This document shows positions 14,925 to 49,224 of a stretch of 64,000 bases of DNA, piece by piece. The DNA is from Anaerolineae bacterium. GTDB lineage: Bacteria > Chloroflexota > Anaerolineae > JAAYZQ01. Made by a program: the position numbers and the translations under genes. The stretch spans positions 39,023-103,022 of the forward strand of contig DAOTXL010000002.1 of assembly GCA_034435455.1 (NCBI GenBank), read 5' to 3'. A model generated the notes under the pieces. It was given only the letters and a program-made list of their open reading frames with translations. It searched no databases and had not been told where the DNA came from. Each line of letters starts with the position of its first letter. Position 1 is the first letter of the stretch.

Positions 14925-14925
14925 G

Positions 14926-15687: not shown

Positions 15688-15724
15688 TCTGGCACTCCTC
15701 CTTTCACTGTCCTCAACGCCCGGC

Positions 15725-18220: not shown

Positions 18221-18263
18221 TGCATTGCCTCCCCCTTCTGTACTATGGTACGAAAAGATATGC

Positions 18264-18917
18264 TCAGTGGTTTCCTCCTGCATCCAATTGCTGCGCCAGG
18301 GTCGTCAGCAGCCCATCGGCGAGCCGGGCGACCGGCTTGTAGAACCGGGCGGCGTCCAGGGCGTACAGCTCGGTGCAAAACCGGGGCCCCCAGGCCAGCA
18401 AGTGCTCCTGAAGAAAGCGCCGGGCTATGTCCAGATATTGCTCTTCCCCGGTCTCCAGGAATACTCGCCCCAGGTAAGCCATGAAGCCCAGCTCCAGGCC
18501 AAAGTGATCGGGCGGGTAGTTACAGGCATGGATGCTCTGCACGCCGGATTCGGCCCAGAAGGCGCGAACCTGGTCCACCGACTCGCCCATCAGTAGTCCC
18601 TGGAACGTCTGCCCTCCCACGGTCAGGCGATCCCGATAAACCGACTCGTAGGGATGAACGGTCCGAGGTTGCGGCCCGACGAACAACGCGGCGAATTCCC
18701 GGCGCAGTTCGCCGTGCAGATCGGCCGCATCCCGCCCCCGTTGGGCTCGGGCGAACGCCCGCAGAGCCTCCAGCCCGTGGACCAGTTTGCCGTTGCTGCC
18801 CGGTGGCGCTGGCAGGTCCAGCTCTCCCTGCACCATCTCTGTGGCCAGGGCGAGAGGGGGCTCCTCCAAAAAGAGGGCCGCAACCATCCATTCCAACGAA
18901 ACCAGCGTTGGATCCAC
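18264..18917 (-). CDS. TorD/DmsD-family molybdoenzyme chaperone
   Basis: 217 aa, TorD-family helical pattern; immediately upstream of alpha subunit. Confidence 0.65.
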   Translation of the reverse strand: MDPTLVSLEWMVAALFLEEPPLALATEMVQGELDLPAPPGSNGKLVHGLEALRAFARAQRGRDAADLHGELRREFAALFVGPQPRTVHPYESVYRDRLTVGGQTFQGLLMGESVDQVRAFWAESGVQSIHACNYPPDHFGLELGFMAYLGRVFLETGEEQYLDIARRFLQEHLLAWGPRFCTELYALDAARFYKPVARLADGLLTTLAQQLDAGGNH

Positions 18918-21526: not shown

Positions 21527-22771
21527 TCAGGGGCACAGGATGATCCCCTGCGCCCACAAGCAATCCCCGCACGCGGGGAACTCGTTGCCGAAGCAGTCTT
21601 CCTCGTTCGATTCAGAGTACTGGCAGCCACCACAGTCGACGCAGGGCGAAAAGTCGAATTCCACGACCCGCCGGCGGAACTGCTGGTATTTGGTGTGCTG
21701 CCAGACACGCGTGATGGCCTCGTCGTTGACATCGCCCACGACATAGCGCCGGATCGCTTTCTCCCGGCCGAGGATGTAGCAGGTGTAAGAGTGCATGAGG
21801 GCGATGCATGGACTCACCCCACCGTCCCAGGCTACAGCTACGGCGCCTTCGCGCACAAAGCGGCAGTAGCCCTTGAGACTGCCAGAGTGCTCAAGAAGAG
21901 GGTCGATCGTTCCACCATGCCGCAGGAGCCCTAACAGAGGTTCCAGGACTTCAGGGCGAGCATCAATCCGCGGCAGCACAATCTCCGGATACCACCGCGA
22001 GCGTGTCCGGGGATGCGGGCTGCCCGCTGCCAAAGAGTACAGGATCTCCTCGCTGAACTCTTGAGCGTAGGGCAGTACGTTGGTCACGACGATGAAACTG
22101 GCCTCCAGCGAGTGGGCCAGGCGCCGGAGGTTCGGCAGCTCCGACAGGTTACGCCGCGTGACCACGAACTCCAGGCCAATCTCCGGATTGCCACGAGGGT
22201 TCATGCGCCGCAGCGCCAGCAGGTGGCCGACATTTCGCTGTACCAGGTGCAGGTCCGTGCCTGCCCTGATGCCTGCGTTACTTTCCGGCGAGGCCCCGTC
22301 GACCGAGATGACCAGCGTGCCCAACCCAGCCTGAACCAACCCTTCGGCCATCCCCTGGTCCAGGAGTAGCCCGTTGGTGATCAACTCCGTCCTGGCCCCC
22401 AGCTCCCCGGCCAGAGCCACCATCTCCACGATGTCGGGGTGCAGCAACGGCTCGCCCAGCCCCCAGAAGGCCACGGTCTGTAGCGCAGGCGTCTCTCGCA
22501 GGCCCTCGACAAGCCGCCGATAGGTGTCCGTCGCCATGGTCCCGCCCGGCTCATCCCAGGAGCGACGGATGCAGATGGGGCAGTTCAGATTGCAGGCCGT
22601 GGTCGGTTCGACGTAGACCTGGCGCAGCGGCGGATCGGCCGGGCGGAGCAGTAACCCGTCTGCTGTCTCTTCGATCTGGAACCCGGTGCCGGGTGTCAGT
22701 CCCCAGCGGCGCCGCTCTTCCTCCGGTAACCACAGCGCCCCGTCCCGGCCTACGACCTGCTCTTCGCTCAT
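21527..22771 (-). CDS. Radical SAM / SPASM-domain enzyme with N-terminal AbrB/MazE-like swapped-hairpin domain (paralog 1)
   Basis: N-term GALWLPEEERRRWGLTPGTGFQIEETADGLLLRP fits AbrB-N pattern; CNLNCPIC radical SAM triad; C-terminal Cys-rich SPASM (CVDCGGCQYSE…CGDC). Confidence 0.8.
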   Translation of the reverse strand: MSEEQVVGRDGALWLPEEERRRWGLTPGTGFQIEETADGLLLRPADPPLRQVYVEPTTACNLNCPICIRRSWDEPGGTMATDTYRRLVEGLRETPALQTVAFWGLGEPLLHPDIVEMVALAGELGARTELITNGLLLDQGMAEGLVQAGLGTLVISVDGASPESNAGIRAGTDLHLVQRNVGHLLALRRMNPRGNPEIGLEFVVTRRNLSELPNLRRLAHSLEASFIVVTNVLPYAQEFSEEILYSLAAGSPHPRTRSRWYPEIVLPRIDARPEVLEPLLGLLRHGGTIDPLLEHSGSLKGYCRFVREGAVAVAWDGGVSPCIALMHSYTCYILGREKAIRRYVVGDVNDEAITRVWQHTKYQQFRRRVVEFDFSPCVDCGGCQYSESNEEDCFGNEFPACGDCLWAQGIILCP

Positions 22772-22780
22772 GCGCTTCCC

Positions 22781-24679
22781 CTATACCAACGCCACCACCA
22801 GCCAGCCGGCCAGCAGGACGAACAGCCCGGCGGTGAGCAGCTTGACCGCCGCCGCCCGGCGGTTGATGAACTGCGCCAACTGCTCCGAGGTGGTGCCCAG
22901 GTAGGCCAGCACAAAGACCACCACCAGCGGCAGGATGAACATCAGATTGTAGAGCAGCAGGTAGGCAGCAGCCCGTGCTTTCAGGTTGGGCACGCCCAAC
23001 ACGAAAATGATGGTCGGCAGGTAGACCTGGCCGGTGCAGGCCAGCTCGATGAACGAGATGACCATGCCCGTGACCAAGGCTACCGGCACAAAGGCGCGCA
23101 ACCCGGCTCCCTCGCGGATGACACGGTTGATCCACCGGCGCAGGCGCAGCGGCAGCTTGAGCCGCATCTCCTCCGGCCGGCCACGGCGGGCCTGCCACCA
23201 GTCGTACAGGCTGCCGGCAGCCAGGAAGAGGCACAGGACCGCCGTCAGGCCGTACACCCAGCGGCTGATGGCGCTCAGGAAGGGCAGCGAGGCCAGGAAC
23301 TTGAGCAGGCCAAAGCCGACCCCCAGGTAGGTGAGGAACACGCCCAGGGCAAAGGCCGCGCCCACGGCCAGTACCTCGCGCCGGCCACGGCCGACGAAAG
23401 CCAGGTAGGAGATGAAAAAGACGATGGTGGCAAAGGCACAGGGGTTCAACCCGTCCACCAGCCCGGCGGCCAGCACGGTGAGCACCCCGAAGGAGCGGAA
23501 GCGCTCCACGATGCTGCCCGCGGCCTGGTCCTGGGCGGCCTCCCAGCCCTCCCAGGCAGGCTCGGCCCCGGTCGCGGCGTAGCGAGCGACGAGCGCCTCC
23601 AGGGCCTGGGCGGTCAGTTCCTGGTCCACCAGCGCCTCGTCGCCGACGAACACCGCTGGGGCGATCAGGCGTTTCGCCTCCGGCACGCCGGCCTGTGCCC
23701 CCAGCCACTCGCACAGCGCCGCCTCGGCCTTGACATCGAACTCGTGGACGACGAGCTGCGGATACTGCCCCTGCAAGTAGTTCAGGTCCAGGCTCACCCG
23801 GTCGCATTCACGGCAGCCGGGTTGGTAAAAGTAGGCCAGGTGGATGGGAGGCGCGTCCTCGACGACGGTGGCTGCCGGCGTTGGGGTGGGTAGTTCTACC
23901 TGGGGCAGGTCCACGCCCCCCTGGGCCAGATAGAAGTCGATCAACTCCTCCAACCGGGCCTCGATCTCCGCATTGCCCAGGAGGGCATAGTCGCCGATGA
24001 AAATCTCGGGCATATCGCCGTACTCGAGGCCGTACTGAGCCTCGAGGGCCAGCATCTCTTCGTAGTAGCCCTTTTCCAGATCGAACTCATAGATCTCGAC
24101 CTGGCCTTTCTCGTACTTGTCCAGGATCGGTGGCAGGATCTCCTCTTTCAGCACCAGGCAGGAGTCGCAGTTGCTGTCGTAGAACAGCCAGAAGCGTACC
24201 ACCGCCTCGGCGCCCGCTTCCGGCGTGGGTGTAGGCGGCGGAACCGTGGGTGTGGCAGTGGTGTCCAGCCAGGCCTCCAGGCCGGGGATGGCTGGATAAT
24301 CCAGGCCGCCGGCCGCCAGGTGCTGTTCGATCAGCCCCGGCAACTGCTGGGGGATGTCGTAAGAGCCGACCAGCACCCGGTCGCCGATGAACAGCATCGG
24401 CACGCCACGCTGATCGTCGGGCACGCGCTGGGCTTCCATGGCCGCCCGCCACAACTCATAGCCTGCCGGGTCCGACACCTCGATGGCCACCACCTGGAGT
24501 TGGTCGCCATACTTTTCCTGCAGCGGCGGCAGGGTCTCGGTCAGCACCACGTGGCAATGGGGGCAGGTTTCGGCCCAGAACAACACGGCGCGCACCACAG
24601 GCTCCTCGGCGTGGGCAGCCGGCAACGCCGGGAGCAGCAGGAGCAGCGGCAACAACAGCCATCTCATATTTCGTTCCAT
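22781..24679 (-). CDS. Signal-peptide protein with three thioredoxin-fold domains (CPHC, CDSC, CREC) fused to C-terminal CcdA/DsbD-type transmembrane domain
   Basis: Cleavable signal MRWLLLPLLLLLPALPAAHA; three Trx-like units separated by Pro/Thr linkers; C-terminal 6 TM with CcdA Cys motifs GLNPCAF and ELACTGQ. Confidence 0.75.
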   Translation of the reverse strand: MERNMRWLLLPLLLLLPALPAAHAEEPVVRAVLFWAETCPHCHVVLTETLPPLQEKYGDQLQVVAIEVSDPAGYELWRAAMEAQRVPDDQRGVPMLFIGDRVLVGSYDIPQQLPGLIEQHLAAGGLDYPAIPGLEAWLDTTATPTVPPPTPTPEAGAEAVVRFWLFYDSNCDSCLVLKEEILPPILDKYEKGQVEIYEFDLEKGYYEEMLALEAQYGLEYGDMPEIFIGDYALLGNAEIEARLEELIDFYLAQGGVDLPQVELPTPTPAATVVEDAPPIHLAYFYQPGCRECDRVSLDLNYLQGQYPQLVVHEFDVKAEAALCEWLGAQAGVPEAKRLIAPAVFVGDEALVDQELTAQALEALVARYAATGAEPAWEGWEAAQDQAAGSIVERFRSFGVLTVLAAGLVDGLNPCAFATIVFFISYLAFVGRGRREVLAVGAAFALGVFLTYLGVGFGLLKFLASLPFLSAISRWVYGLTAVLCLFLAAGSLYDWWQARRGRPEEMRLKLPLRLRRWINRVIREGAGLRAFVPVALVTGMVISFIELACTGQVYLPTIIFVLGVPNLKARAAAYLLLYNLMFILPLVVVFVLAYLGTTSEQLAQFINRRAAAVKLLTAGLFVLLAGWLVVALV

Positions 24680-25062
24680 ATCATTTCCTCCATTGTCTCG
24701 CTATCGATCCAATCGTCACAAACGTTCTGGATAGATAGCGAAAGCTTTGGAGGAGGAGGCGCGGGCGCCAGCCACGTGGATAGGTCGTGGATGACTGGCA
24801 GGGCAACAGCCAGGATCAGAATCGGAGGGATGGGCATTCCCAGAGCGCCGGGCAGCCCGGTACAGCAGAACAGGCTGCAGCCGGGCATCTGAGCTTGCGG
24901 TTCCGGCGTGGTGTCCGGCTGGCAGCAGCGCTGGCAGCCGGAGACGGACCGCGCCGTCTGAGCGCGAAGGCAGAGGGGGCCGGCCACGAGGTGCAGGGTT
25001 AGCCCACCCAAAATGGCGACGACGCACAAGACGACGAACAGGCGCAGGATGCCGTATCTCAT
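24664..25062 (-). CDS. Small Cys-rich membrane protein (N-terminal TM; CLRAQTARSVSGCQRCCQPD…GCSLFCCTG)
   Basis: ATGA overlap with upstream gene stop (25059-25062) and 16-nt overlap with downstream gene start support expression; 2 hydrophobic segments; 9 Cys. Confidence 0.5.
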   Translation of the reverse strand: MRYGILRLFVVLCVVAILGGLTLHLVAGPLCLRAQTARSVSGCQRCCQPDTTPEPQAQMPGCSLFCCTGLPGALGMPIPPILILAVALPVIHDLSTWLAPAPPPPKLSLSIQNVCDDWIDSETMEEMIWNEI

Positions 25063-25589
25063 GGCATGAGCTCCGCCAACCGCCGCCCGCCCTCGGCATA
25101 CTCCGGCTCCGCCAGGTGGGGACAGGCCGCCAGGCCCAGTTCGCCGAACAGCAATCGGAAGGCAAAGGCCAGGCAGGTCCGTTCGCCGCAGTCACCGCAG
25201 TTGAGCCGGGGCAGCAGCCGGTAGGCGTCCAACGGCCCCAACTGTTGCCGCCGCTCGTAACAGGGCTCGATCTCGGCCCGGCGACGCCAGGTGTCGTTGC
25301 ACAGCTCCTGGAACCAGCGCAGTTGGGCCTCGGCGTCCTCCTCGCCGTCCACTTTGGCCATCACTGCCACGTGCGGGTAAAAGGTCAGGATGCGCCCGCC
25401 CCGCTTGACGGTCACGGTGCCGGCGCCGGGGTTGTACATCAGGTTGGGCACGACGGCGTTCAGGTAGGGGAACACCTCCCCTACCTGATCCCACAGCTCG
25501 GCAATGATCCGGTTCTTGGTCGGGTCGGCAATGCAGTCCATCACCTGGATGATGGTAAAGCCGCGCAGCAGTACGCCGTCGTCGCTCAT
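25059..25589 (-). CDS. DUF3786-like protein with C-terminal CODH/ACS-type Fe-S cluster domain (paralog 1)
   Basis: C-terminal LLPRLNCGDCGERTCLAFAFRLLFGELGLAACPHL matches the CX2CX4C…CP Fe-S domain of corrinoid FeS protein N-termini; paralog of 31585..32136. Confidence 0.65.
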   Translation of the reverse strand: MSDDGVLLRGFTIIQVMDCIADPTKNRIIAELWDQVGEVFPYLNAVVPNLMYNPGAGTVTVKRGGRILTFYPHVAVMAKVDGEEDAEAQLRWFQELCNDTWRRRAEIEPCYERRQQLGPLDAYRLLPRLNCGDCGERTCLAFAFRLLFGELGLAACPHLAEPEYAEGGRRLAELMP

Positions 25590-25598
25590 GGTCCTTTT

Positions 25599-26777
25599 CT
25601 ACGGGCAGCGGATGATGCCCTGCGCCCACAGGCAATCGGCGCAGGAAGGCACGTTGCCCAGGCAATCCTCGTTGTTCTCGGCATAGTCGCAGGCCAGGCC
25701 ACAGTCCACGCAGTACATGAAGCGAAAATCGCGCACCCTGGCCCGAAAACGCACATATTCTTCCGACTGCCAGATGTCGGCCAGCGCCTGCTCGTTCACG
25801 TTGCCCAACAGGTAGCGGCTCACATTTTTGCGCCGGCCATAGATGTAGTAGGGGTAGCTGTGCATCAGGGGGTAGCAGGGGCTGACCCCGCCATCCCAGC
25901 CGATGACCACGGCCCGGTCCTCGACGAAGCGGCACTGCCGCCAGGCCCCCCACTTCATGCGCGGCAGGTCCATCCGCCCCCAGCCGATACCGCCTGCCTC
26001 TTTCACCGGCCAGCTCAGGGGCAGGCCCAGCGGCTCATCGCTGTCGTACAGGATCTCATCGCCCATGGCTTCGGTGTGGGGCAACAGATTGCTGACCAAC
26101 ACTTTGGAGGCTCCCAACCCGGCGGCGATCTCCCGCAGGTGCGGCAGATGGTCCCGGTTGGAGCGGGTGGCGACGAACTCCAGCCCCAGGTTGAGGGGCA
26201 ACCCGCCGCGCTGTTCGGCCAGGCGCATCAGGCGGCGGGCATTGTCCAGCACCCGCTCCAACCCGCCGACGATGCGCGCCCCGTCGTAGGCCTGGGTATG
26301 CACCGTGTCCAGGGAGATAACCACCCAATCCACCGCTGCCGCCAGCAGGCAGTTGGCCATCGCTTCGTCCAGCAGCAGGCCGTTGGTCGTCACCGTCAGC
26401 GGCACCCCCAGCGTCGAGGCCAGGGCCAGCATCTCCGGCAGGCGGGGGTGGACCAGCGGTTCGCCGTAGCCGCCCAAAACCAGGCGCCGTAGGTCCGGCA
26501 GAGCACGCAACCCGGTGATGGTCGCCTCGAACGTCTCCCAGGCCATGTCGCCAGGTGGGTCACTCCATACCTGGCGGACACACACAGCACAGTTCAGGTT
26601 GCAGCGGGTTGTCACCTCCAGGTAGGCCTTGCGGGTGTCGGGGCGGACGCGGTGCAGTCGCAACCCGTCCTCAAACGATTCGACGACGACCCGGGCCCCT
26701 GGCTCCAGCCCCAGACGGGCCACCTGCTCAGCCGGCAGAATCAGCCGTCCATCCACCTCTATTGTCAATTCAGGCAT
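25599..26777 (-). CDS. Radical SAM / SPASM-domain enzyme with N-terminal AbrB/MazE-like domain (paralog 2)
   Basis: LTIEVDGRLILPAEQVARLGLEPGARVVVESFEDGLRLHRV; CNLNCAVC; SPASM Cys cluster; colinear with 21527..22771 protein. Confidence 0.8.
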   Translation of the reverse strand: MPELTIEVDGRLILPAEQVARLGLEPGARVVVESFEDGLRLHRVRPDTRKAYLEVTTRCNLNCAVCVRQVWSDPPGDMAWETFEATITGLRALPDLRRLVLGGYGEPLVHPRLPEMLALASTLGVPLTVTTNGLLLDEAMANCLLAAAVDWVVISLDTVHTQAYDGARIVGGLERVLDNARRLMRLAEQRGGLPLNLGLEFVATRSNRDHLPHLREIAAGLGASKVLVSNLLPHTEAMGDEILYDSDEPLGLPLSWPVKEAGGIGWGRMDLPRMKWGAWRQCRFVEDRAVVIGWDGGVSPCYPLMHSYPYYIYGRRKNVSRYLLGNVNEQALADIWQSEEYVRFRARVRDFRFMYCVDCGLACDYAENNEDCLGNVPSCADCLWAQGIIRCP

Positions 26778-26783
26778 TTCTCT

Positions 26784-27584
26784 TTAGAACCCCAACCGCG
26801 CCTGCAAGGCGTCGGCGCCGGCCCTGGCCTTGTTCACCGCTTCGATGAACAGGGCTCTTGCTTCGGCCTCCCGCAGCGGCTGGAGCGGGGTCAGGGCCAT
26901 CAGCGCCGCCGGCGACTGGCCGGTTTCCAGCACCAGCGCCCCACTGCCCCGCACCACCCCGGCGGCCAGCCGCAGCGCCACTTCGCGTTCCAGGCCCCCC
27001 TCCACGCCGGCCTGGGCCAGGGCGGCAATCAGCGGAAAGAAATAGGTCGGCGCCGCCGCCGTCAGCCCCACACACAGGTTCATCTGCGCTTCCGGGACCT
27101 CCACCCCTTCGCCCCAGCAGGCCAGCAGCCGCTCGACCAGGGCGCGCGCCTCCGGTGTGACTGCCCGGCCATAGCATACCGGCGTCACCCCCTGGCCGAC
27201 CAGGGCGGGCGAGTTGGGCAGTGTCCGGACCACCGGCACGCCGTCGCCCGCTGCCCGCTCCATGGCTGCCAGGGGCACGGCTGCCGCCGTCGAAACGACC
27301 AGGTGTTCCGGCGTCAACCGGGGAGCCAGCGCCTCCAGCACGGGGATGACCTGGCCCGGTGGCACGGCCAGGATGATCACGTCCGCTTCGGCGGCGCGCA
27401 GGTTGTCGTCGGTGGCCATCACCCCGGCCCACTCGGCGATCTCGGCCCGGCGTTCTGCGTTCGGCTCGCAGGCGATGATCTGCCCCCGGCTGCACTCGCC
27501 GCAGGTCAGCAGCCGGTCTACAAGCAGGCCCCCCAACAGGCCTACCCCCACAACGGCCAGTCGGCACTCTCCAAGCCTTTTCAT
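26784..27584 (-). CDS. Pyrroline-5-carboxylate reductase family NAD(P)H oxidoreductase (ProC-like)
   Basis: Rossmann LAVVGVGLLGG, P5CR dimerisation region; ATG 27584 with AAGGAGGTG RBS. Confidence 0.6.
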   Translation of the reverse strand: MKRLGECRLAVVGVGLLGGLLVDRLLTCGECSRGQIIACEPNAERRAEIAEWAGVMATDDNLRAAEADVIILAVPPGQVIPVLEALAPRLTPEHLVVSTAAAVPLAAMERAAGDGVPVVRTLPNSPALVGQGVTPVCYGRAVTPEARALVERLLACWGEGVEVPEAQMNLCVGLTAAAPTYFFPLIAALAQAGVEGGLEREVALRLAAGVVRGSGALVLETGQSPAALMALTPLQPLREAEARALFIEAVNKARAGADALQARLGF

Positions 27585-27588
27585 CGGT

Positions 27589-27897
27589 TCACCTCCTTTT
27601 CTCCTCTGGCCGGCCTGCGCCGGCCCTTGCCTGCCAATAGGCTGTGTACTCGCGCAACAGCGCCTCTTTATAGTCCTGCTCCGAGCCACGGGCGACCCAG
27701 TTGCGCGTTTGAATCATGGCCAGTAGCTCTTCCGCCGTCTCCGGGCCCGGCTGGCGGTCCAGCAGGTAGAGTTGCTTCAGGACATCATCCAGCCCGACAA
27801 TGCCTACCGGTACGCCGCCGATCTGGATCTGCCGCACCCGGGCATCCAGGTTACAACTACAGGACTGCCTCCACATATCCGGTCCTCGTCCGGGCAT
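27589..27897 (-). CDS. Small uncharacterised 'IxIGG/E' domain protein (paralog of N-terminus of 31003..31578)
   Basis: …QIQIGGVPVGIVGLDDVLKQL…YKEALLREYTAYWQ aligns with FRQILIGEQMVGLWGLQELFDEL…YEEALLREYRRYWK. Confidence 0.45.
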   Translation of the reverse strand: MPGRGPDMWRQSCSCNLDARVRQIQIGGVPVGIVGLDDVLKQLYLLDRQPGPETAEELLAMIQTRNWVARGSEQDYKEALLREYTAYWQARAGAGRPEEKRR

Positions 27898-27978
27898 TTT
27901 CTCACCTCCTCAATCCCGGTTCAGTGTCGGAGATTCCTTTGCCCCAAGGTGCCTGGCACCTGAGCAGTTGCCTGTCCG

Positions 27979-28917
27979 TCATCCTGCAAGCATCCCTCGC
28001 ACGATCACGTCCACGGCCGTCTCTTCGTCCAGCCCGCGGGCCATCAGCGTCTCCAGCTCCTTCTTGTCCACCGTGCCGATGGCCGCCTCGTGGGTGACGT
28101 AGGCCCGTGGGTCAGTCACCCTGACCACCGGCACGGCGTTGGCCACGGCCTGATCGCGCACAATCTCCACGCAGTCTACATGCCCCCGGGCAAAGGGGGC
28201 GTGTCCCTCCGTCGTGCCGATGACCTCGGCCGTCGCCCGGTCGCGCACGGCGATGCGCGATTTCGCCAGGCCGCGCGCCCCCTCGCCGTTGAGCCGGATC
28301 GTCTCCCTGACCGAGATGGCGTCGTCTCCGTAGCCGTAGGCCTTGGTGACCAACTCGGCCACGCCTCGGGCGGCTACATCCACCACGTAGTCGAATTCCA
28401 GTTTGCCCACCCGGCCTGTGGTCAGGGCGAACTCGGTGACGAATTGCCCGCCTTCCTCCACCGTGACCTGGGCCCTGGGGATCACCGCGACGCCCCCACC
28501 TTCGCCGTGGTAGTGGGTTTCGCGATACTTCATGGCCGCCCCCCGGCCGATGTGGACCGTGGCCTCCATGAAGTGTACTACCTGCTCGGCGTTGGGGAAG
28601 GTGCAGTGGGCAATGAACTCGGCCCGCGCCCCGTCGCCGATCTCGAACTCGGACAGGATGCGCTGCACCCCCTCCCTGGGGATGACGCCAAAGCAGAGGT
28701 GGGCCGGCGTGTCCAAACGGACCCCAGGCTCAACGACCACCCTGGCCCGCACCCCGTCGGGCAGCTCCTCGGAGGTCAGGTGCACGCCGGCCACCTCATT
28801 GCTGCCCAGCACCCGGTTGCCGCTGACCACCAGGCTGGCCACCCGGGGCGAGCGCAAAAAATGGGGATCGCCTCCTGAACGCTCGTAGGCCTGCAAAATC
28901 GCCTCAAGGTCGCTCAT
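27979..28917 (-). CDS. SufB/SufD-family Fe-S assembly scaffold-like protein (short form)
   Basis: 312 aa beta-helix SufBD-family pattern; overlaps SufC-like gene by 14 nt. Confidence 0.6.
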   Translation of the reverse strand: MSDLEAILQAYERSGGDPHFLRSPRVASLVVSGNRVLGSNEVAGVHLTSEELPDGVRARVVVEPGVRLDTPAHLCFGVIPREGVQRILSEFEIGDGARAEFIAHCTFPNAEQVVHFMEATVHIGRGAAMKYRETHYHGEGGGVAVIPRAQVTVEEGGQFVTEFALTTGRVGKLEFDYVVDVAARGVAELVTKAYGYGDDAISVRETIRLNGEGARGLAKSRIAVRDRATAEVIGTTEGHAPFARGHVDCVEIVRDQAVANAVPVVRVTDPRAYVTHEAAIGTVDKKELETLMARGLDEETAVDVIVRGMLAG

Positions 28918-29659
28918 AAGCTCCTCCGGCCGGCTCCACCGACCCCGCCACCTCGCACGGCCGGCAGCGCCGGGCGTAGTGATGGCGGACCTCTGCCGGT
29001 TCGCCCACGCGCACGACCTCCCCCTCGCACATCAGGGCCGCCACGTCGGCCACCGGTACCATCTCGTCGCGGTGGGTGATGAGCAACACCGCCGTGCCCC
29101 GCTCCGCCAGGCGGCGGATGAGGCCGGCGATGTCATCCAGCGACAGCACATCAATGCCCGAATCCGGTTCGTCCAGGATGGCCAGTTTGGGCTGCATGGC
29201 GTACACCGCCGCCAGCTCGATCCGCTTCCGCTCGCCGCCGGACAGGGCATCGTTGACCGTGCGGCCCAGGTAAGCGGAGGGGGAGAGGGCCACGGCGGCC
29301 AACGCTTCTTCCATCTGCCCCCGCGAGGGGTCCTTCATACCCAGGCGCAAATAGTCCGCGACCTTGAGCCCCTCGAAACGGGCCGGGTCTTGCCAGGCCA
29401 GGGTCAGCCCCAGCCGGGCCCGATCGGTGATCGGCAGGCTGGTGATCTCCTGCCCATTGAACAGAATGCGCCCTCTGGAAGGGGTATAGCCGGCGCAGCC
29501 CATCAGGGTGTAGGCCAGGGACGACTTGCCGGAGCCGTTGCGGCCCAGCAGGCCGTACACCTGGCCGGGCGCGACCGCCAGGTCCACCCCGCGCAGGATC
29601 TCCTGCCCGCCGCGTTCCAGGTGCAGGCCGTTCACCTGCAGAATGTGACCGTCGTTCAT
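28904..29659 (-). CDS. sufC: SufC-like ABC ATPase
   Basis: Walker A GRNGSGKSS, signature LSGGERKR, Walker B ILDEPDSG; ATG 29659; unusual C-terminal RRCRPCE extension. Confidence 0.65.
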   Translation of the reverse strand: MNDGHILQVNGLHLERGGQEILRGVDLAVAPGQVYGLLGRNGSGKSSLAYTLMGCAGYTPSRGRILFNGQEITSLPITDRARLGLTLAWQDPARFEGLKVADYLRLGMKDPSRGQMEEALAAVALSPSAYLGRTVNDALSGGERKRIELAAVYAMQPKLAILDEPDSGIDVLSLDDIAGLIRRLAERGTAVLLITHRDEMVPVADVAALMCEGEVVRVGEPAEVRHHYARRCRPCEVAGSVEPAGGAYERP

Positions 29660-29832
29660 TCTCCTCAGCTCCTCGTTGTCCCATACCTCCGCAAGAACTC
29701 GTCGGCCGACATCCAGACCTCTGTCTGGCGTAGCGCGGTAGGTCGCCGGCGGCGCAGGCTTGTAAACCCACATGATCCACCAGGTGTAGAAATTCTCCCA
29801 GAATTTGCCAAACAGCTACGCAACCATTCAAA

Positions 29833-30609
29833 TTAGCTATCCCCGCCCCTGCCCTCCAGGCCCAGGGCCCGCGGCCGACCCGTCCCACCGTAGCGCACCT
29901 GGACGACCTCGGCCAGGATGGCCAGGGCGATCTCTTCCGGGCTACGCCCGCCCAGGTCCAGCCCGATGGGGGCGCGGACCTGCGCCAGCCGCTCCTCGGG
30001 CACGCCATCAGCCCGAAGGTGACCAAAGATGGTCTGCACTTTGCGCCGGCTGCCGATCATGCCCACGTAGGCCGCCGGCGTGTCCAGCACCTGACGCAGC
30101 GTCTGCTCGTCGGTGAGGTGGGTCTGGGTGATGATGACCACGTACGTCCAGGGTGTGATCGCCGTCGGGTCGAACTGCGGCACGGTCGCCCGCTCCGGCT
30201 GCACGTCCACCACCTGGACGTGAAAGCCAACGATGCGCCCCATCTCGGCCAGGGGGCAACCCAGGTGTCCGCCGCCGACGATGAGCAGGGTGGGGATGGG
30301 ATTATAGACTTCGATGAAAAAGGTCACATCCCCACCGCACAGCGTCCCCAGCGCATCCGGCCCCTCCTCGCGCAGCGTGGAGTGAAACAGCCGCGACCGG
30401 CCCTCCTCCAGGGCAGCCACGGCCTCCTCACGCACCCGCTGCTCCAGTTCGCCCCCGCCGACGTTGCCCACGGCGTCGCCATTGAGCCGCACCAACAGTT
30501 TAAAGCCCACCTGCGCCGGCGACGCCCCCGTCACGTCTACCACTGTCGCCAGGGCCACCGGCTCGTTGCGCTCCAGCGCCTCGTTCAGCGCAGCAATCAC
30601 GTCTCTCAC
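29833..30609 (-). CDS. XdhC/CoxI-family molybdenum-cofactor insertion/sulfuration accessory protein
   Basis: Two-domain XdhC pattern (…ATVVDVTGASP… and …LLIVGGGHLG…YVGMIGSRRK). Confidence 0.7.
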   Translation of the reverse strand: MRDVIAALNEALERNEPVALATVVDVTGASPAQVGFKLLVRLNGDAVGNVGGGELEQRVREEAVAALEEGRSRLFHSTLREEGPDALGTLCGGDVTFFIEVYNPIPTLLIVGGGHLGCPLAEMGRIVGFHVQVVDVQPERATVPQFDPTAITPWTYVVIITQTHLTDEQTLRQVLDTPAAYVGMIGSRRKVQTIFGHLRADGVPEERLAQVRAPIGLDLGGRSPEEIALAILAEVVQVRYGGTGRPRALGLEGRGGDS

Positions 30610-30657
30610 AGTCCCTCCCTCATCTCCAATGGACGATGTCCCCCACCTTTACGCCCC

Positions 30658-30888
30658 TCAAGACAGCTCCTTGAGATAGCGGATCGGCACGTCGAACTCG
30701 ATCCGGAACCGTCCATAGTCCTGGATATAGAACGTGAACTCCTGGCTGGCGGGTCGCAGGGCGTTCCAGAGGTCCCACGGCACATAAATGGTGCCGTAGC
30801 GCCGGGCGAACTCGCCGATCTGGATGGCCAGATAGTCCTCTGGATTGTCAGGTTGGCCCAACCGACCGGTTGGGACCTCGGCAGCCAC
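30658..30888 (-). CDS. Small protein with weak 'IQIGE' domain similarity, GTG start
   Basis: AIQIGEFARRYGTIYVPWDLWNAL resembles the domain in 27589..27897 and 31003..31578; GTG start directly after TGA-TGA of upstream mini-ORF. Confidence 0.35.
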   Translation of the reverse strand: MAAEVPTGRLGQPDNPEDYLAIQIGEFARRYGTIYVPWDLWNALRPASQEFTFYIQDYGRFRIEFDVPIRYLKELS

Positions 30889-30891
30889 TCA

Positions 30892-30990
30892 TCAATCTAC
30901 GACCAGCAATTGGCGGGTGATGGTCAGCGCCCCCCCCTGTTCTTTCAGGTACTGCTTGAGCCAGTTGGATTTGGTCTTGGCCAGAATCAT
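30892..30990 (-). CDS. Possible 32-aa leader mini-ORF (MILAKTKSNWLKQYLKEQGGALTITRQLLVVD) containing a G8 homopolymer
   Basis: GAGGAGG 4 nt upstream of ATG; ends with tandem TGA TGA then in-frame GTG of next gene; contains C8/G8 run 30930..30937. Confidence 0.25.
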   Translation of the reverse strand: MILAKTKSNWLKQYLKEQGGALTITRQLLVVD

Positions 30991-31002
30991 CCATCCTCCT
31001 CG

Positions 31003-31578
31003 TCACCGGCCCAGCCGGGCCAGCGTCTCCCGGGGTGGGAAGCGGATGGCCCCCCGCCTGCACACCTTCACACAGGCATCGCAGCCAACCAGGCAGTTGA
31101 AGGGAGCGACGACGATGGCCTGGTGGCCGGCCTCGTCCAGTTCGTATACCCCGTAAGTGCAGAAGGTCAGGCAGTCACCGCAGCCATCGCAGCGGTCGGG
31201 ATAGATAGTCGGGTACCACGGTATCTGCTCGCGGGGTTTGCCCTGCCAGGTGCGGGGCGGCAGCGTCTGGGGGCGCTTCTCCGCCCCCTGGCCCTCCTTC
31301 TCTCGCTCCTTCCAGTAGCGGCGATACTCCCGGAGCAGCGCCTCCTCGTACAGCGGCCGGGCTTTGGGAAAGACATAATTCTCCCGCTCGACCCTCTCCA
31401 GCAGCAGCGGGGCCAGGCCCGGCTCCGGGGCGCGACCCTGGCTGCGCAGCTCGTCGAACAGCTCCTGCAGCCCCCACAGCCCCACCATCTGCTCGCCGAT
31501 CAGGATCTGCCGGAAACTCAATTGCGCCACCGAACCGCCTCCTCTCCCGCCCGACAGCTCCCTCTCTGCCGGCGGCAC
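31003..31578 (-). CDS. Fusion of 'IxIGE' domain with C-terminal 2x[4Fe-4S] ferredoxin
   Basis: N-term FRQILIGEQMVGLWGLQEL…ALLREYRRYW; C-term CDGCGDCLTFC and CLVGCDACVKVC. Confidence 0.6.
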   Translation of the reverse strand: MPPAERELSGGRGGGSVAQLSFRQILIGEQMVGLWGLQELFDELRSQGRAPEPGLAPLLLERVERENYVFPKARPLYEEALLREYRRYWKEREKEGQGAEKRPQTLPPRTWQGKPREQIPWYPTIYPDRCDGCGDCLTFCTYGVYELDEAGHQAIVVAPFNCLVGCDACVKVCRRGAIRFPPRETLARLGR

Positions 31579-31584
31579 ATTTCC

Positions 31585-32136
31585 TTACCCCTCCCGCCGG
31601 CCAATGGCCGGCAGATCGACCGCCAGCAGGTCTGCCAGTTGCGCCTGTTGTTCGGCATATTGGGGTTCGCTCAGCAACGGGCAGTCCTGCAACTGCACCT
31701 GGCCGGCTACCAGCTTGTTGGCAAAGACAAAGCAGGTAGCCTGGCCGCAGGCCTTGCAGTTGGTGCGGGGCAGCAGCTTATAGACCTCCATCAACCCCGG
31801 CCGGCGGCGCACCTCGTAGCTCGGTTCGATCTCGGCCCGCTGCTCCCAGGTGCGGTTGACCAGTCGGATCAGCCCTTCGACCTCCTGGATGGCTGCGTCC
31901 CGGTCAGGAACATTGCTGACGGCGATTTCGTAAGGGTGAAACGCAATGTTGTGCCCGCCCTTCTTCCAGGTCAGAGCAGGGGCAGCGACATTATAGACCG
32001 CGCCGCGCAGGGTCGCGTTCAGGTAAGGCAACACCTCGCGGATGTCGGTCACCAACCGGGCGACGGCGCTGAACCGCTCTGCCCCCGGATCACAGGGTGG
32101 GGTGGACACTTCCAGGTCGTACTTTTCGATCAACAT
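31585..32136 (-). CDS. DUF3786-like protein with CODH/ACS-type Fe-S cluster domain (paralog 2)
   Basis: LLPRTNCKACGQATCFVFANKLVAGQVQLQDCPLL; ATG 32136 with GGGAGGAAAG RBS; ORF-track N-extension is read-through. Confidence 0.65.
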   Translation of the reverse strand: MLIEKYDLEVSTPPCDPGAERFSAVARLVTDIREVLPYLNATLRGAVYNVAAPALTWKKGGHNIAFHPYEIAVSNVPDRDAAIQEVEGLIRLVNRTWEQRAEIEPSYEVRRRPGLMEVYKLLPRTNCKACGQATCFVFANKLVAGQVQLQDCPLLSEPQYAEQQAQLADLLAVDLPAIGRREG

Positions 32137-32140
32137 CAGA

Positions 32141-33379
32141 CTATCTTTCCTCCCACGAGTTCTCCTCAAACACCGGCACCCGGCCCTCGGCCACGCAGCG
32201 GTGGGCGAAGAGGTACATCCCCGCCGACCAGGCCTGGTGCGGATATCCCATCGGCCGACCTGTGCGGCCGTGGCACCACTCGTTGAACTCCCACTCTTCC
32301 TCGATCCCCAGCCGATTGACCTCGGCCAGCCTCTCCAGTTGTCGCCGCGCCTCCTCCAGGCGCCCGGCCTTGACCAGCGCAGCGACGTAAAAGCCGCCGA
32401 CAAAGGGCCAGATGCCGCCGTTGTGATACTGCTCGGGCAGGTTCAGGTTGTTGTTGCGATAGTACTCGCGCCAGTCTTTGTTGCCCGGATGGATGACCGG
32501 GTGCAGCACCCGCACCGGGTACGGTTCGGCGATGCCCACCTGGTGTAGATAGTCCAGGATGCGCCGCTCCTGGGCCGGGTTAGCCACGCCGAACAGCACC
32601 GCCAGCAGGTTGCCGAATACGTCGCAATAGTCGCCATAGTCGCGAAAGGCGACGTAGGGCAGGAAGAAGGGTCGCTTGACCAGCACCGGGTCCACCTGGC
32701 TAAGAGTGTGCCGCCACTCGCCATGGCCCGGGCAGGTCGGCCCCCATTCTTCGGCGTTCTCCGGCCCCACCCACAGCACGATACGCAGCTTGTGCCGCAC
32801 GTCGGCGGCCATCTCGGCATAACGCGATCCATCCTTCTCCAGGGTGTCAGCCATGACGGTCATGGCCCGCAGCGCCGCATACCACAGGACATTATCGTAC
32901 AGGATATTGAAGCGGTTGGCAAGCAGGTCGGCCCAGTCGGCGGCCTCGTGCACCTCCAGCAGGCCGCAGCCGTTCGAGTCCTGGTAGCGCAGCCACAGCA
33001 GCGCCCGCTCCAGAGAGGGCCAGTGCGCCCGCAGGGAATCGGCGTCGCCGGTCATCTGGTGGTTGATATAGTGGCCGACGATGTACCACAGGTTCGAGTC
33101 CACCGAGCCGGCATTGGTGTGGTCCAGCCGGCCCGTGGCGACGCTGACGTTGTTGGGGATGGCCCCCAGTTCCGACTGCTGACCGGCCAGGGTGTGCAGC
33201 GAGGTGCGCAGGCAACCCTCGTGACCGGCGGTCAGGCTGGCTCCCAGGCCGGTAATGACGCTGTCCCGCGCCCAGACGTGGGGGTAACCCTCCGGCGAGG
33301 CCATCAATCCCAGCGGGCTGCATTCGCGGCCCAGCACGTCCTCGGCTTTTTCTAACGCCATTTCAGTCAAGTTGCTCAT
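32141..33379 (-). CDS. Six-hairpin glycoside hydrolase, GH100 (neutral/alkaline invertase) / amylo-1,6-glucosidase-like
   Basis: 412 aa, family pattern (…NLWYIVGHY…HEAADWAD…GGIWPF…). Confidence 0.55.
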   Translation of the reverse strand: MSNLTEMALEKAEDVLGRECSPLGLMASPEGYPHVWARDSVITGLGASLTAGHEGCLRTSLHTLAGQQSELGAIPNNVSVATGRLDHTNAGSVDSNLWYIVGHYINHQMTGDADSLRAHWPSLERALLWLRYQDSNGCGLLEVHEAADWADLLANRFNILYDNVLWYAALRAMTVMADTLEKDGSRYAEMAADVRHKLRIVLWVGPENAEEWGPTCPGHGEWRHTLSQVDPVLVKRPFFLPYVAFRDYGDYCDVFGNLLAVLFGVANPAQERRILDYLHQVGIAEPYPVRVLHPVIHPGNKDWREYYRNNNLNLPEQYHNGGIWPFVGGFYVAALVKAGRLEEARRQLERLAEVNRLGIEEEWEFNEWCHGRTGRPMGYPHQAWSAGMYLFAHRCVAEGRVPVFEENSWEER

Positions 33380-33691: not shown

Positions 33692-34009
33692 TTACCCCTG
33701 CATCCAGGCCGGGTTCCAGGGCTCATCGAGCAGGGTTACTTTGGCCTCCTTCACCCCCGGCACGGCGGCCACCGCCCGCCGAGCCTGCTCGGTGATGAAT
33801 CCGGCCAGCGGGCAAAAGGGCGCCGTCAATACCATCTTGACCTCGACGTTGCCTTCGTCGTCCAGCTCGATGTGACGAACCATCCCCATGTCCACCACGC
33901 TCATGCCGATTTCTGGGTCTATCACCGGCCGCAGGGCCTCACGAATTTGTGCTTCTGTTACCATATCACTCTCCTTTATAACTACCTCGACAATGGTGGC
34001 AAATTCCAT
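33692..34009 (-). CDS. DUF59 (MIP18-family) Fe-S cluster carrier/assembly protein
   Basis: …VRHIELDDEGNVEVKMVLTAPFCPLAGFI… DUF59 motif; start TGATG-coupled to OsmC stop (alternative ATG at 33964 with AAGGAGAG RBS). Confidence 0.65.
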   Translation of the reverse strand: MEFATIVEVVIKESDMVTEAQIREALRPVIDPEIGMSVVDMGMVRHIELDDEGNVEVKMVLTAPFCPLAGFITEQARRAVAAVPGVKEAKVTLLDEPWNPAWMQG

Positions 34010-34443
34010 CAATCCTGGTCTCCCTTCGCCAGCTCGCCCTGCACCGCCACGCCGTCGAGCAAGGTGTTGGTCACCGTGCCCCACTTGAAAGCCACCTCGT
34101 GCAGTTTCTCCAGCCTGTCCGGCGGTTCGGGGCTATCCAGCAGCAGGCGATAGCGAATCTGGACGAGGCCCGGCGGTTCGTCGCGGCGGTCGCCCTCGAC
34201 CTCGACGCGCACGCCGTCCACCTGCAGGCGCATCTTGGCCGCCAGGGCGTTGACGTTGGTGACCAGGCACACCCCCAGCGCAGCCAGCAACGTCTCGGCG
34301 GCGTTGAAACCGGCCCTCGGGTCGCCGCGGCGCACGCCCAGCGTCAGCGTGTGGCCATGGGACGAGGCCTGGGCATGGGCCTCGTCCTGGCGTTCTATGC
34401 TCACTCGATAGGTACGGAAGGGATCGGCCTTTTTCCTGTCCAT
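34009..34443 (-). CDS. OsmC/Ohr-family peroxiredoxin-like protein
   Basis: 144 aa, OsmC fold pattern with conserved Cys (…LGVCLVTNV…). Confidence 0.65.
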   Translation of the reverse strand: MDRKKADPFRTYRVSIERQDEAHAQASSHGHTLTLGVRRGDPRAGFNAAETLLAALGVCLVTNVNALAAKMRLQVDGVRVEVEGDRRDEPPGLVQIRYRLLLDSPEPPDRLEKLHEVAFKWGTVTNTLLDGVAVQGELAKGDQD

Positions 34444-37048: not shown

Positions 37049-37942
37049 TCAACCTCCGCCCACGCACACCACGGACCCCTGCCCGCAACTTTCGCACTCG
37101 AACTGGATGGTGGTGTGCTCGATGTCAAACGCCTCGGCCAACGTCTGCTTCAGGCCTGCCATCACCTCCTGCGTCTGGCTCAGCACCTGGTCGGCCAGCA
37201 GCACATGGGCGCTGAGGGCCACGTAGCCGGGACTGACGGTCCAGATGTGCAGGTCGTGCACATCCATCACCCCAGGCACCTGGCCCATGGCCTCCGCCAC
37301 CTGGCTTGACGTCAGATGCAGGGGCACGCCCTCGGCCAGGATGTGCACCGATTCGCGCAGCGCGCGCCCCGACCCCAGCAGGATGATCACCCCGATCAGC
37401 ACGCTGATCAACGGGTCAGCCAGGGCCCAGCCGGTGAACAGGATGACCACACCGGCGACGATGACGCCTATCGAGGCCAGCGCGTCGCCCAGGACGTGCA
37501 GGAAGGCGCTGCGTACGTTCAGGTCGTGGTGGTCGTGCTCGCGCAACACCAGCGCCACCAAGAGGTTAACCGTCAGACCGGCCACAGCCACGGCCAGCAT
37601 CGGACCAGCCAGGACAGGGGCCGGGTGCTGGAAGCGCTGCCAGGCTTCGCGCCAGATCTCAAAGGCCACCAGCAGGAGGGTCGCCCCGTTGGCCAGCGCA
37701 GCCAGCACCTGCATGCGGTGAAAGCCGTAGGTATGGCGGTCATCGGGCGGCAGCGCGGCAAGGCGCAGGGCGACATAGCTCATCCCCAGGGCGAACAGAT
37801 CCAGGAAGACGTGAGCCGCATCGGAGAGCAGGGCCAGGCTGCCGGTCCACAACCCGCCAGCGACCTCGGCGACCAGGATCAGGCCGGTCAGGGTCAGCGA
37901 CAGGAGGAAGCGGTGCTCGACACGATGCGTGTCTCGTTGCAT
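37049..37942 (-). CDS. Cation diffusion facilitator (CzcD/ZitB-like) metal efflux transporter
   Basis: 6 TM with HxxxD motifs and C-terminal cytoplasmic domain; histidine-rich loop EHDHHD. Confidence 0.8.
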   Translation of the reverse strand: MQRDTHRVEHRFLLSLTLTGLILVAEVAGGLWTGSLALLSDAAHVFLDLFALGMSYVALRLAALPPDDRHTYGFHRMQVLAALANGATLLLVAFEIWREAWQRFQHPAPVLAGPMLAVAVAGLTVNLLVALVLREHDHHDLNVRSAFLHVLGDALASIGVIVAGVVILFTGWALADPLISVLIGVIILLGSGRALRESVHILAEGVPLHLTSSQVAEAMGQVPGVMDVHDLHIWTVSPGYVALSAHVLLADQVLSQTQEVMAGLKQTLAEAFDIEHTTIQFECESCGQGSVVCVGGG

Positions 37943-38349
37943 CAGTGCAACCACTCTGTGTGATCCACCAGTCGCCCCTCCAGGTAGCTCCGGACCGCCT
38001 CGTCAATGACCGGGATGTCGGTGACCACCGGACGGATGCCGGCCTGGGCCATGCTCTGATAAGCGCCGGCGCCCATCCCCCGCGCCAGGAGCACCTGGCA
38101 ATCGGCGATGGCGGCAGCCATGCGCGCGTGGCGGGACTGGGCGCCGGCGTCAAAACCGTGGCCGCGTGGGTCGGCCCCGTGGGCCTCCTCGGTGTGCGGC
38201 TCAGCGGCGAACTGGGCATGACCCATCTTGTCCCGCATCTCACGAGAAACGATCCTTCCTTCTTCCACGGTGATAACGACATAAAACGGGGCGCGGCCAA
38301 AGTGCTGGCTGATGGTCACGCCATCTTCAGATACGGCTGCGATTTTCAT
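37942..38349 (-). CDS. NifX/NafY-type dinitrogenase FeMo-cofactor-binding domain protein
   Basis: MKIAAVSEDGVTISQHFGRAPFYVVITVEEG…; ATG 38349 with GAAGGAGAAAC RBS. Confidence 0.7.
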   Translation of the reverse strand: MKIAAVSEDGVTISQHFGRAPFYVVITVEEGRIVSREMRDKMGHAQFAAEPHTEEAHGADPRGHGFDAGAQSRHARMAAAIADCQVLLARGMGAGAYQSMAQAGIRPVVTDIPVIDEAVRSYLEGRLVDHTEWLH

Positions 38350-38771
38350 CCTGTTTCTCCTTCGGTTTCTTGAATCTTGGCGATGATGGCCTCCACCGCT
38401 CGCTCCAGGTCTTCCGGGGAATAGGCCAGCGGCTTGAAGGGGCCGATCTTTTTGATTTTCAGGTCCTTGCCCAGGTTGACGTAGCCGTCCATCCGTGCCC
38501 CGGTCTGCTCTACGATCTTGCGTACGCAGGAGTTGGGGCAGCCATCTATGACGACCACTTTTTCCAGGCTTTGCATGGTCCGAAAGTGCTTGGGGATACC
38601 AGCCGCCAGAGCCGACACGCAACCCATCCCAACCTCCTGTGGCCCCAGCCGTTTCATCACCTCGAACGCGGCCACGCCGGTCAGTTCGCCGGCGCTCGAC
38701 ATGGCCCCGCCGCAGTAAAGGATGCCGACGCGCGGCTTTTCTTCGTCCTCGTGCTCTGAACTCATCTTCAC
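38346..38771 (-). CDS. DGC-domain putative metal-binding protein (copy 1)
   Basis: ILYCGGAMSSAGELTG…VVIDGCPNSC. Confidence 0.6.
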   Translation of the reverse strand: MKMSSEHEDEEKPRVGILYCGGAMSSAGELTGVAAFEVMKRLGPQEVGMGCVSALAAGIPKHFRTMQSLEKVVVIDGCPNSCVRKIVEQTGARMDGYVNLGKDLKIKKIGPFKPLAYSPEDLERAVEAIIAKIQETEGETG

Positions 38772-39215: not shown

Positions 39216-39229
39216 CCGTTCCTCCTCTC

Positions 39230-40303: not shown

Positions 40304-40317
40304 GCCTTGTTTTCTCC

Positions 40318-47110: not shown

Positions 47111-48271
<1,161 letters not shown>

Positions 48272-49210: not shown

Positions 49211-49224
49211 ATCCCACCGGTCGG

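Follow-up and report, generated by a model that had tools for sequence, protein, structure and literature searches.

Does the cluster of 14 genes at positions 21527-32136 of an Anaerolineae contig stretch belong to a pathway that has already been described, and what could its two radical S-adenosylmethionine (radical SAM) enzymes be for? The window analyzed here, the whole 64-kb stretch of contig DAOTXL010000002.1, carries all 14 genes on the minus strand, and at most junctions the genes overlap or are spaced by 4-16 nt; an ATGA is shared at 25059-25062, and overlaps of 16 nt (24664-24679) and 14 nt (28904-28917) also occur. The co-directional, tightly packed layout recorded in a preliminary description of the locus was therefore confirmed. 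The cluster is a conserved system without experimental description, and the region is a new variant built on two catalogued but uncharacterised families. The partners of the radical SAM enzymes that are kept across lineages are an iron–sulfur (FeS) protein with a TBP-like domain and a predicted selenoprotein with two adjacent selenocysteines (Sec), here called the UU protein, which the preliminary description had overlooked. With a probability of about 40%, the cluster represents the AOR-linked radical SAM maturase system for pyranopterin (W/Mo) enzymes in an expanded form that is assisted by selenium and located in a metalloid-stress island.

Radical SAM enzymes and their genomic company

The Pfam and NCBIfam searches recovered most of the domains that had been read from the sequence, among them two radical SAM enzymes with SPASM domains (PF04055 and PF13186 in both rSAM-A and rSAM-B, which are 42% identical), two PF04060 proteins, and a ferredoxin fusion. 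By far the best family of both radical SAM enzymes is TIGR04317, 'tungsten cofactor oxidoreductase radical SAM maturase', whose CX3CX2C motif and C-terminal SPASM domain they share. The match of rSAM-B spans profile positions 2-349 of 349 and scores 366.8 bits, and rSAM-A scores 312.9 bits, both under the curated cutoff of 380 bits. The next family is TIGR04311 ('putative metalloenzyme maturase'); the PqqE, MftC, AhbD, and sactipeptide maturase families give less than 70 bits, and TIGR04303 (GeoRSP) is found among the weak matches. Many of the 794 homologs of rSAM-B bear the TIGR04317 name in NCBI or JGI records. Accordingly, the earlier statement that the locus maps to nothing described does not hold. 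We take TIGR04317 to be the 'cmo' gene that was noted beside aor of Pyrococcus furiosus in 1995.

Besides the lower scores, the window differs from the TIGR04317 pattern by an extra AbrB/SpoVT-like N-terminal domain, a duplicated radical SAM gene, the lack of an AOR gene, and a different set of partners (TBP-like/FeS proteins, the Sec-Sec protein, XdhC, and Trx3-CcdA). The proposed AbrB-like nature of the N-terminal domain is partly sustained: the domain profile matches 2glw (2.5e-4) and SpoVT (0.013), which lends modest support to an AbrB/SpoVT-like fold, and several homologs carry PF04014, but the Pfam MazE match (E 0.0055) remains under the cutoff. The nearest solved structures align to the radical SAM core only, and BtrN, GDGT-MAS, and BlsE outrank PqqE and MoaA. 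Because these nearest relatives mostly act on small molecules or lipids, the SPASM domain is no proof of a peptide or protein substrate, contrary to what had been concluded from it. A PqqD domain or RiPP recognition element (RRE; RiPP, ribosomally synthesized and post-translationally modified peptide), within a protein or as a partner, was absent from all module proteins in the Pfam/NCBIfam searches.

Genome context was compared across 80 loci anchored on radical SAM homologs, which were obtained from a scan with the radical SAM alignment at one genome per species. All window proteins, as well as AOR and MoaD from locus L007, were mapped onto them (L numbers designate loci of other genomes). 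AOR genes (at least 54% identity to the L007 AOR) lie next to the radical SAM gene in 24 of the 80 loci and MoaD-like genes in 22, most of the AOR loci having both. The UU gene accompanies it in 15 loci, 11 of which also contain FeS-2. ArsR is present in 17, the small domain described below in seven, and Trx3-CcdA in seven plus L092 and L095. L007 has the order FeS-rSAM-AOR-MoaD, and L017 unites both types of partner in one array, FeS-2-UU-TauE-rSAM-AOR-MoaD. L090 contains SufC-SufBD-CysDes-FeS-1-SufT as well as FeS-2-MoeA-PIG-L-Fdx-AOR. In two differently arranged loci (L012, L091), XdhC is encoded directly upstream of the radical SAM enzyme. In four Thermoflexus loci the radical SAM gene adjoins that of a DMSO-reductase-family (DMSOR) enzyme, and the window, L009, and L095 likewise encode DMSOR-family enzymes close to the module. 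Radical SAM enzymes linked to AOR/MoaD interleave with those linked to FeS/UU/ArsR in a neighbour-joining tree; the sister of the rSAM-B clade is a clade of AOR-linked enzymes (62-67% identity), and the homologs found beside AOR or MoaD-like genes are 47-67% identical overall. The strongest cross-genome signal ties this radical SAM lineage to AOR, MoaD-like proteins, XdhC, MoeA, and DMSOR-family enzymes, and the cluster is therefore read as a maturase variant. A role for the neighbouring Mo/FeS enzymes, which the preliminary description had offered as its fallback, is thus the better supported of its two ideas.

Sub-sets of the module recur in dozens of genomes of Chloroflexota and Armatimonadota. 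The full 14-gene order is found only in the source lineage and its near relatives (L003, L004, L009, L095). The supposed duplication of a radical SAM-FeS pair stands in part: rSAM-B and FeS-1 are adjacent and both families are paralogous, but FeS-2 lies about 9 kb from rSAM-A, which adjoins Trx3-CcdA instead of an FeS protein. Orthologs of rSAM-A are rarer and adjoin Trx3-CcdA (L092, L095) or ArsR-XdhC (L091). A scan for promoters and terminators returned sites no more frequently than in shuffled sequences.

FeS proteins and a predicted di-selenocysteine protein

FeS-1 and FeS-2 are 41% identical, and PF04060 is matched by FeS-1 with E 6.5e-10. They had been described as DUF3786-like; PF12654 gives no match to either protein even at E<=10, and the N-terminal domain is modeled as TBP-like. 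FeS-1 adjoins the radical SAM enzyme in L005, L007, L009, L012, and L095, and in L090 it stands with SufC-SufBD, the Cys desulfurase, and SufT. FeS-2 belongs to a large family with 2397 matches, of which the best 120 listed are all 71-100% identical. JGI gives its homologs the putative name 'ArsR family metal-binding transcriptional regulator'; for FeS-2, a role as redox partner is as conceivable as one as regulator. In L005, a relative with 72% identity, a 48-aa open reading frame (ORF; 11233-11379) lies between the radical SAM enzyme and the FeS protein.

Downstream of FeS-2 and its ferredoxin neighbour, a 32-codon ORF starting at 30990 is in frame with a 76-aa ORF at 30658-30888, and the two are separated solely by TGA-TGA. 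The same in-frame tandem was present in 16 of 16 other loci having the downstream ORF. With a hidden Markov model (HMM) and a covariance model, 18 instances were obtained in all, every one of them with the UU pair. In bacterial selenoprotein genes, the selenocysteine insertion sequence (SECIS) is a hairpin located shortly 3' of the UGA. Such a hairpin, with a G in its apical loop, is present in the UU gene. Its 7-bp stem is paired in 97.8% of the alignment cells, against no more than 51.6% after sliding of the partners; compensatory changes occur in two pairs, and all 13 distinct sequences have the same GGUC loop. The covariance model of the hairpin, run on 1.26 Mb of loci, matched UU genes only. 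Its position and loop presumably resemble those of the E. coli fdhF SECIS. An Rfam scan of the TGA region found no SECIS family, the sole match being a spurious long non-coding RNA.

When UU is replaced by CC, the alignment to the profile of NF041239, the 'CC/Se motif (seleno)protein' family, extends across the TGA-TGA site, and the tandem occupies the position of the Cys/Sec pair of the family in all 18 instances. The window copy scores 19.2 bits (E 9.5e-4), below the cutoff of 40, and orthologs reach 29.2, 37.0, and 42.6 bits, the last of these (L011) above it. A C-x-x-U motif is kept in many orthologs; the window copy lacks the upstream Cys. Since NF041239 is listed as a CxxU family with a single Sec and of unknown function in a 2026 review (PMC13188914), the constant Sec-Sec form constitutes a new variant. 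Judged from its sequence, 30658-30990 is thus predicted to encode a selenoprotein with two adjacent Sec residues, a distant member of NF041239. Adjacent Sec-Sec motifs appear uncommon, and a described linkage of this family to a radical SAM/SPASM enzyme or a PF04060 protein was not found.

In public annotation, the gene is hidden as two 'hypothetical' micro-ORFs. The preliminary description had likewise split it and counted three proteins with a shared 'IxIGE...ALLREY' domain; only the products of 27589-27897 and 31003-31578 share it, and the 76-aa ORF is part of the UU gene. This ORF was also considered as a free-standing AbrB-like partner of the radical SAM N-terminal domain and rejected (hhalign probability 0.4%). 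Searches of PDB sequences with UU protein profiles yielded noise only, an HMM search revealed no Cys-Cys homologs in AOR-type loci, and neither a tRNA nor a credible further TGA-interrupted gene was detected in the 64-kb window.

Other module proteins and flanking genes

The features of the module are compiled in Table 1.

Table 1. Features of the module and its immediate upstream neighbour (positions in the 64-kb window).
Feature	Positions	Strand	Description
rSAM-A	21527-22771	-	AbrB-like N-domain + radical SAM (CNLNCPIC) + SPASM, 414 aa; divergent paralog
Trx3-CcdA	22781-24679	-	exported triple thioredoxin (CPHC, CDSC, CREC) + DsbD/CcdA-type membrane domain, 632 aa
Cys-rich small membrane protein	24664-25062	-	132 aa (CQRCC, CSLFCCTGLPG, PPPP)
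FeS-1	25059-25589	-	TBP-like N-domain + PF04060 [4Fe-4S] domain, 176 aa
rSAM-B	25599-26777	-	AbrB-like N-domain + radical SAM (CNLNCAVC) + SPASM, 392 aa
P5CR-like NAD(P)H oxidoreductase	26784-27584	-	266 aa; PF03807, PF14748
small-1	27589-27897	-	N-terminal CxC + beta-hairpin/three-helix domain (IxIGG...ALLREY), 102 aa
SufB/D-like scaffold, divergent	27979-28917	-	312 aa; PF01458
SufC-like ABC ATPase	28904-29659	-	251 aa by public gene call (from L003)
XdhC-family pterin-cofactor chaperone	29833-30609	-	258 aa; PF02625, PF13478
UU protein (predicted)	30658-30990	-	110 aa: 32 aa, TGA-TGA 30889-30894, then 76 aa
SECIS-like hairpin	30857-30874	-	CCCAACC-GGUC-GGUUGGG; starts 20 nt after first TGA
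small-2/Fdx	31003-31578	-	small domain fused to 2x[4Fe-4S] ferredoxin, 175-191 aa; Fer4_7, Fer4_9 matches
FeS-2	31585-32136	-	TBP-like N-domain + PF04060 [4Fe-4S] domain, 183 aa; heads FeS-UU-rSAM triad
GDE_C/GH100-like glycoside hydrolase	32141-33379	-	Pfam match; 4 nt upstream of FeS-2

Clear Pfam matches (XdhC_CoxI and XdhC_C) identify the XdhC-family protein, which scores 204 bits against NF045664, 'XdhC family aldehyde oxidoreductase maturation factor' (cutoff 350), and 97 bits against TIGR02964 (cutoff 162). It shares both domains with the XdhC/PaoD chaperones of the molybdenum cofactor (Moco) and, like them, is encoded with chalcogen-handling genes (PMC2997495, PMC2432076). The XdhC-like YqeB belongs to selenium-dependent molybdenum hydroxylases (PMC2997495, PMC2432076). 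Unlike XdhC/PaoD and YqeB, the window protein has no xanthine-oxidase-family enzyme nearby, stands beside a radical SAM enzyme, and remains below the NF045664 cutoff.

The SufC/SufBD pair, XdhC, and the P5CR-like protein named in the preliminary description are all supported by Pfam/NCBIfam. The SufC-like ATPase scores 165.9 bits against TIGR01978 (cutoff 212.8), and the best NCBIfam match of the SufB/D-like protein is SmsB with 70.6 bits, far under the cutoff (SufD, 39.9 vs 222). The pair thus resembles SUF/SMS systems in combining an ATPase with a protein of the SufB/D core, and a SufT-like protein and a class-V desulfurase are encoded in the vicinity, but all scores stay under the cutoffs, SufS, SufE, and SufU are not in the module, and the pair is syntenic with FeS-1 and not with housekeeping suf genes. 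The SufB/D-like protein accompanies SufC in L005, L009, and L090. The P5CR-like protein scores 170.5 bits against TIGR00112 (proC; cutoff 196.75), and its pairing with small-1 is kept in L009, L089, and L095.

Trx3-CcdA has the signal peptide and the three CxxC repeats that had been read from its sequence. Its thioredoxin matches are weak and Pfam DsbD_TM gives no direct match; the membrane domain can be aligned with the DsbD_TM (PF02683) protein of the window (27% identity, E 6e-9), and BLASTP matches both transmembrane Cys residues (NPC/GPC, ACTG/QCAT). It shares with DsbD/CcdA these two conserved Cys and the fusion to exported thioredoxin modules, and differs in its three tandem thioredoxin domains and in its repeated position beside a cytoplasmic radical SAM enzyme. 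The Cys-rich small membrane protein is present as described, with its ATGA overlap, and matches no Pfam or NCBIfam family.

The domain shared by small-1 and small-2/Fdx (41% identity over 81 aa) forms 196 clusters at 50% identity, has an N-terminal CxC or CC motif, and exists as a stand-alone protein or in fusions with DGC, ferredoxin, Trx_3, or OsmC. Its confident AlphaFold2 (AF2) core is a beta-hairpin with three helices without a strong PDB match. Orthologs of small-2/Fdx adjoin AOR in L015 and L090. The GDE_C/GH100-like gene lies upstream of module genes in L005, L089, and L090, often with a PIG-L deacetylase, a company that may hint at sugar-thiol metabolism.

On one side of the module, two DMSO-reductase-family operons are located on the minus strand, at 8607-11045 and 13761-18917; one of them has a Tat signal and is PhsA/Psr/ArrA-like, and the other is nearest to formate-dehydrogenase alpha and includes NrfD and a TorD-like chaperone. 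Two-component systems stand beside the DMSO-reductase-family enzymes. This agrees with the molybdoenzyme flank reported earlier, but the opposite flank is more than the cofactor-trafficking array it had been taken for, since arsenic genes had been missed. At 47111-51439 (minus), an arsenic set comprises ACR3 (463 bits vs an equivalog cutoff of 283), a tandem-Usp protein, ArsR, and an ArsP_1-type permease nearest to the SO_0444/SaoE efflux families. Three paralogous DGC-domain genes (38346-38771, 38832-39227, and 46712-47098, all minus) encode putative metal-binding proteins. The class-V desulfurase at 43937-45139 (minus) is above the TIGR01977 cutoff, scores 391 bits against SclA (cutoff 525), and could be a source of S or Se for the module. 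TauE permeases and a CDF transporter are also encoded in this flank.

The CDF transporter (37049-37954, minus) has a Cys-rich tail, CESCGQGSVVCVGGG, which is terminated by a TGA; the in-frame, coding-like ORF behind it is probably the next gene. The gene at 39230-40321 (minus) encodes an Mrp/NUBPL-type Fe-S carrier, nearest to MrpORP and under its cutoff, whose FeS_assembly_P domain is 49% identical to that of the SufT-like protein at 33692-34084 (minus). At 51924-54751 (plus), the gene of a MoxR AAA ATPase precedes one for a B12-binding radical SAM protein that passes the TIGR04190 cutoff with 636 bits.

Possible functions of the cluster

If the cluster is a maturase variant, its radical SAM enzymes would perform a step in the maturation or repair of the pyranopterin (W/Mo) cofactor or of the enzymes containing it. 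The FeS and ferredoxin proteins would deliver low-potential electrons to the radical SAM clusters, XdhC would hold the cofactor, and the Sec-Sec protein of the window, or the MoaD-like proteins of AOR operons, may serve as carriers of a chalcogen (Se/S) or a metal. Trx3-CcdA might keep extracytoplasmic Cys reduced, either for exported targets or under metalloid stress, and the SufC/SufBD-like pair would provide private Fe-S assembly. XdhC-family proteins are known to bind, sulfurate, and insert Moco (PMC2997495), and the literature already counts the MoaD-like genes of AOR operons among the putative factors of W-cofactor maturation (PMC6365974).

Several observations weigh against this proposal. 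No match to AOR or MoaD was obtained anywhere in the 64-kb window, neither radical SAM enzyme reaches the TIGR04317 cutoff, and some radical SAM homologs stand alone (L001/L032). The FeS-UU-rSAM triad usually lies among ArsR, ArsP-type permease, TauE, ACR3, and ChrA genes and not among pterin genes. To our knowledge, the AOR cofactor has no known chemistry that needs a radical SAM step. The name of TIGR04317 is based on genome context alone: in the literature searched, no experimental paper on the function of the family was found, no paper mentioned TIGR04317, none gave a radical SAM role in AOR maturation, and a 2023 review of molybdoenzyme maturation makes no mention of the family. For the triad itself, a more specific interpretation can be put forward tentatively. 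It may be an undescribed selenium-dependent radical SAM system, in which a diselenol site would be used or remodeled by the radical SAM enzyme, either to provide tungsto- or molybdopterin enzymes with a chalcogen or metal ligand or to transform metalloids.

The company of the triad raises the question of whether the system handles As, Sb, Se, or related oxyanions under ArsR control, without a link to pterin cofactors. The Sec-Sec and CxC small proteins would then bind metalloids, the radical SAM enzymes would form, cleave, or repair bonds between metalloids and carbon or chalcogens, and Trx3-CcdA and the permeases would remove or detoxify the products. ArsR is encoded within the 17 loci mentioned above, the order ArsR-ArsP_1-rSAM-Trx3CcdA is recurrent (L041, L045, L048, L061), and L002 has ArsR-Trx-ArsP_1-Trx-rSAM. 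L089 reads FeS-2-Fdx-UU-ArsR-small-1-P5CR...rSAM-ArsR-ArsC(LMWP)-ACR3, and L010 contains ACR3, a BcrAD-type activase set, FeS-2-UU, patatin, the radical SAM enzyme, an ABC transporter, and ChrA. The window itself has a bona fide ACR3, ArsR, ArsP_1, the three DGC-domain genes, and the SclA-like desulfurase; the small domain occurs fused to DGC domains, and many of the recently discovered selenoproteins have been connected with resistance to metals or metalloids (PMC13188914). This explanation nevertheless appears doubtful, given that it leaves the tight link of closely related radical SAM enzymes to AOR, MoaD, XdhC, and MoeA unexplained, that the module proteins match no arsenic-specific family (ArsM, ArsI, ArsL/ArsS-type), and that the ars genes of the window are about 15 kb from the module. 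The ArsR/ArsP/ACR3/ChrA/Trx-CcdA context, which recurs just as often as the pterin-related one, may also reflect a system that maintains metalloid-sensitive cofactors. As a separate observation on L010, which is the closest simple relative, the genes directly upstream of FeS-2-UU-rSAM (4732-7697) encode a BcrAD/BadFG-type ATPase together with two DUF2229/HGD-D-like proteins, an ATP-driven low-potential electron 'activase' set.

A RiPP-like or QhpD-like maturation, in which the radical SAM/SPASM enzyme would modify either the Sec-Sec protein, whose selenoether or heterocycle would then form a redox centre derived from the protein, or the Cys-rich membrane protein, is unlikely. Its attraction lies in the position of the UU gene, which in most of the 18 instances is immediately upstream of the radical SAM gene, like the precursor genes in PQQ, mycofactocin, and QhpC/D systems. 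SPASM maturases (AnSME, QhpD, PqqE, MftC, GeoRSP) share the architecture and the small conserved protein alongside, maturases with Sec-containing peptides are already catalogued (e.g., GeoRSP), and Sec in substrates contacts auxiliary clusters (PMC10177961). However, the window enzymes score 35-68 bits against these families (cutoffs 265-400), no module protein has a PqqD/RRE domain, the nearest solved radical SAM enzymes by sequence act on small molecules, and the AOR-linked sisters lack a UU or CC homolog. The UU protein, moreover, resembles a folded, conserved domain of 100 aa and not a short leader-core peptide. The Cys-rich protein, favoured as the substrate in the preliminary description, is translationally coupled between FeS-1 and Trx3-CcdA, but its orthologs, in which CSLFCC(T/S)GLPG is kept, are confined to very close relatives (L089, L009, L095). 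It is highly improbable that there is no functional unit at all, but a chance assembly of redox and Fe-S genes in one lineage of metagenome-assembled genomes, with TGA-TGA merely separating two small ORFs. The restricted 14-gene order would agree with chance, as would the potential start codon that always follows 11 codons after the TGAs; the codon-position substitution test downstream of them (308/323/353) gives no clear signal either way. Against it stand the recurrence of sub-modules across distinct radical SAM clades and phyla, the alignment of NF041239 across TGA-TGA, and a tandem TGA and hairpin with compensatory changes kept at all 18 sites.

The analysis adds a conserved FeS-UU-rSAM triad, a mis-annotated di-selenocysteine gene, and recurring XdhC, AOR, and ArsR contexts to what is known of these genes. 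It thereby defines candidate partners for the AOR-linked radical SAM family, i.e., an electron-donor-like FeS protein, XdhC, MoaD-like proteins, and the Sec-Sec protein. If the interpretation of the triad as a selenium-dependent system is true, it would reveal the chemistry of the AOR-associated 'cmo'/TIGR04317 enzymes. Finally, the repeated embedding in ArsR/ACR3/ArsP islands suggests an unexplored link of metalloid stress to the maintenance of pterin and Fe-S enzymes in Chloroflexota.

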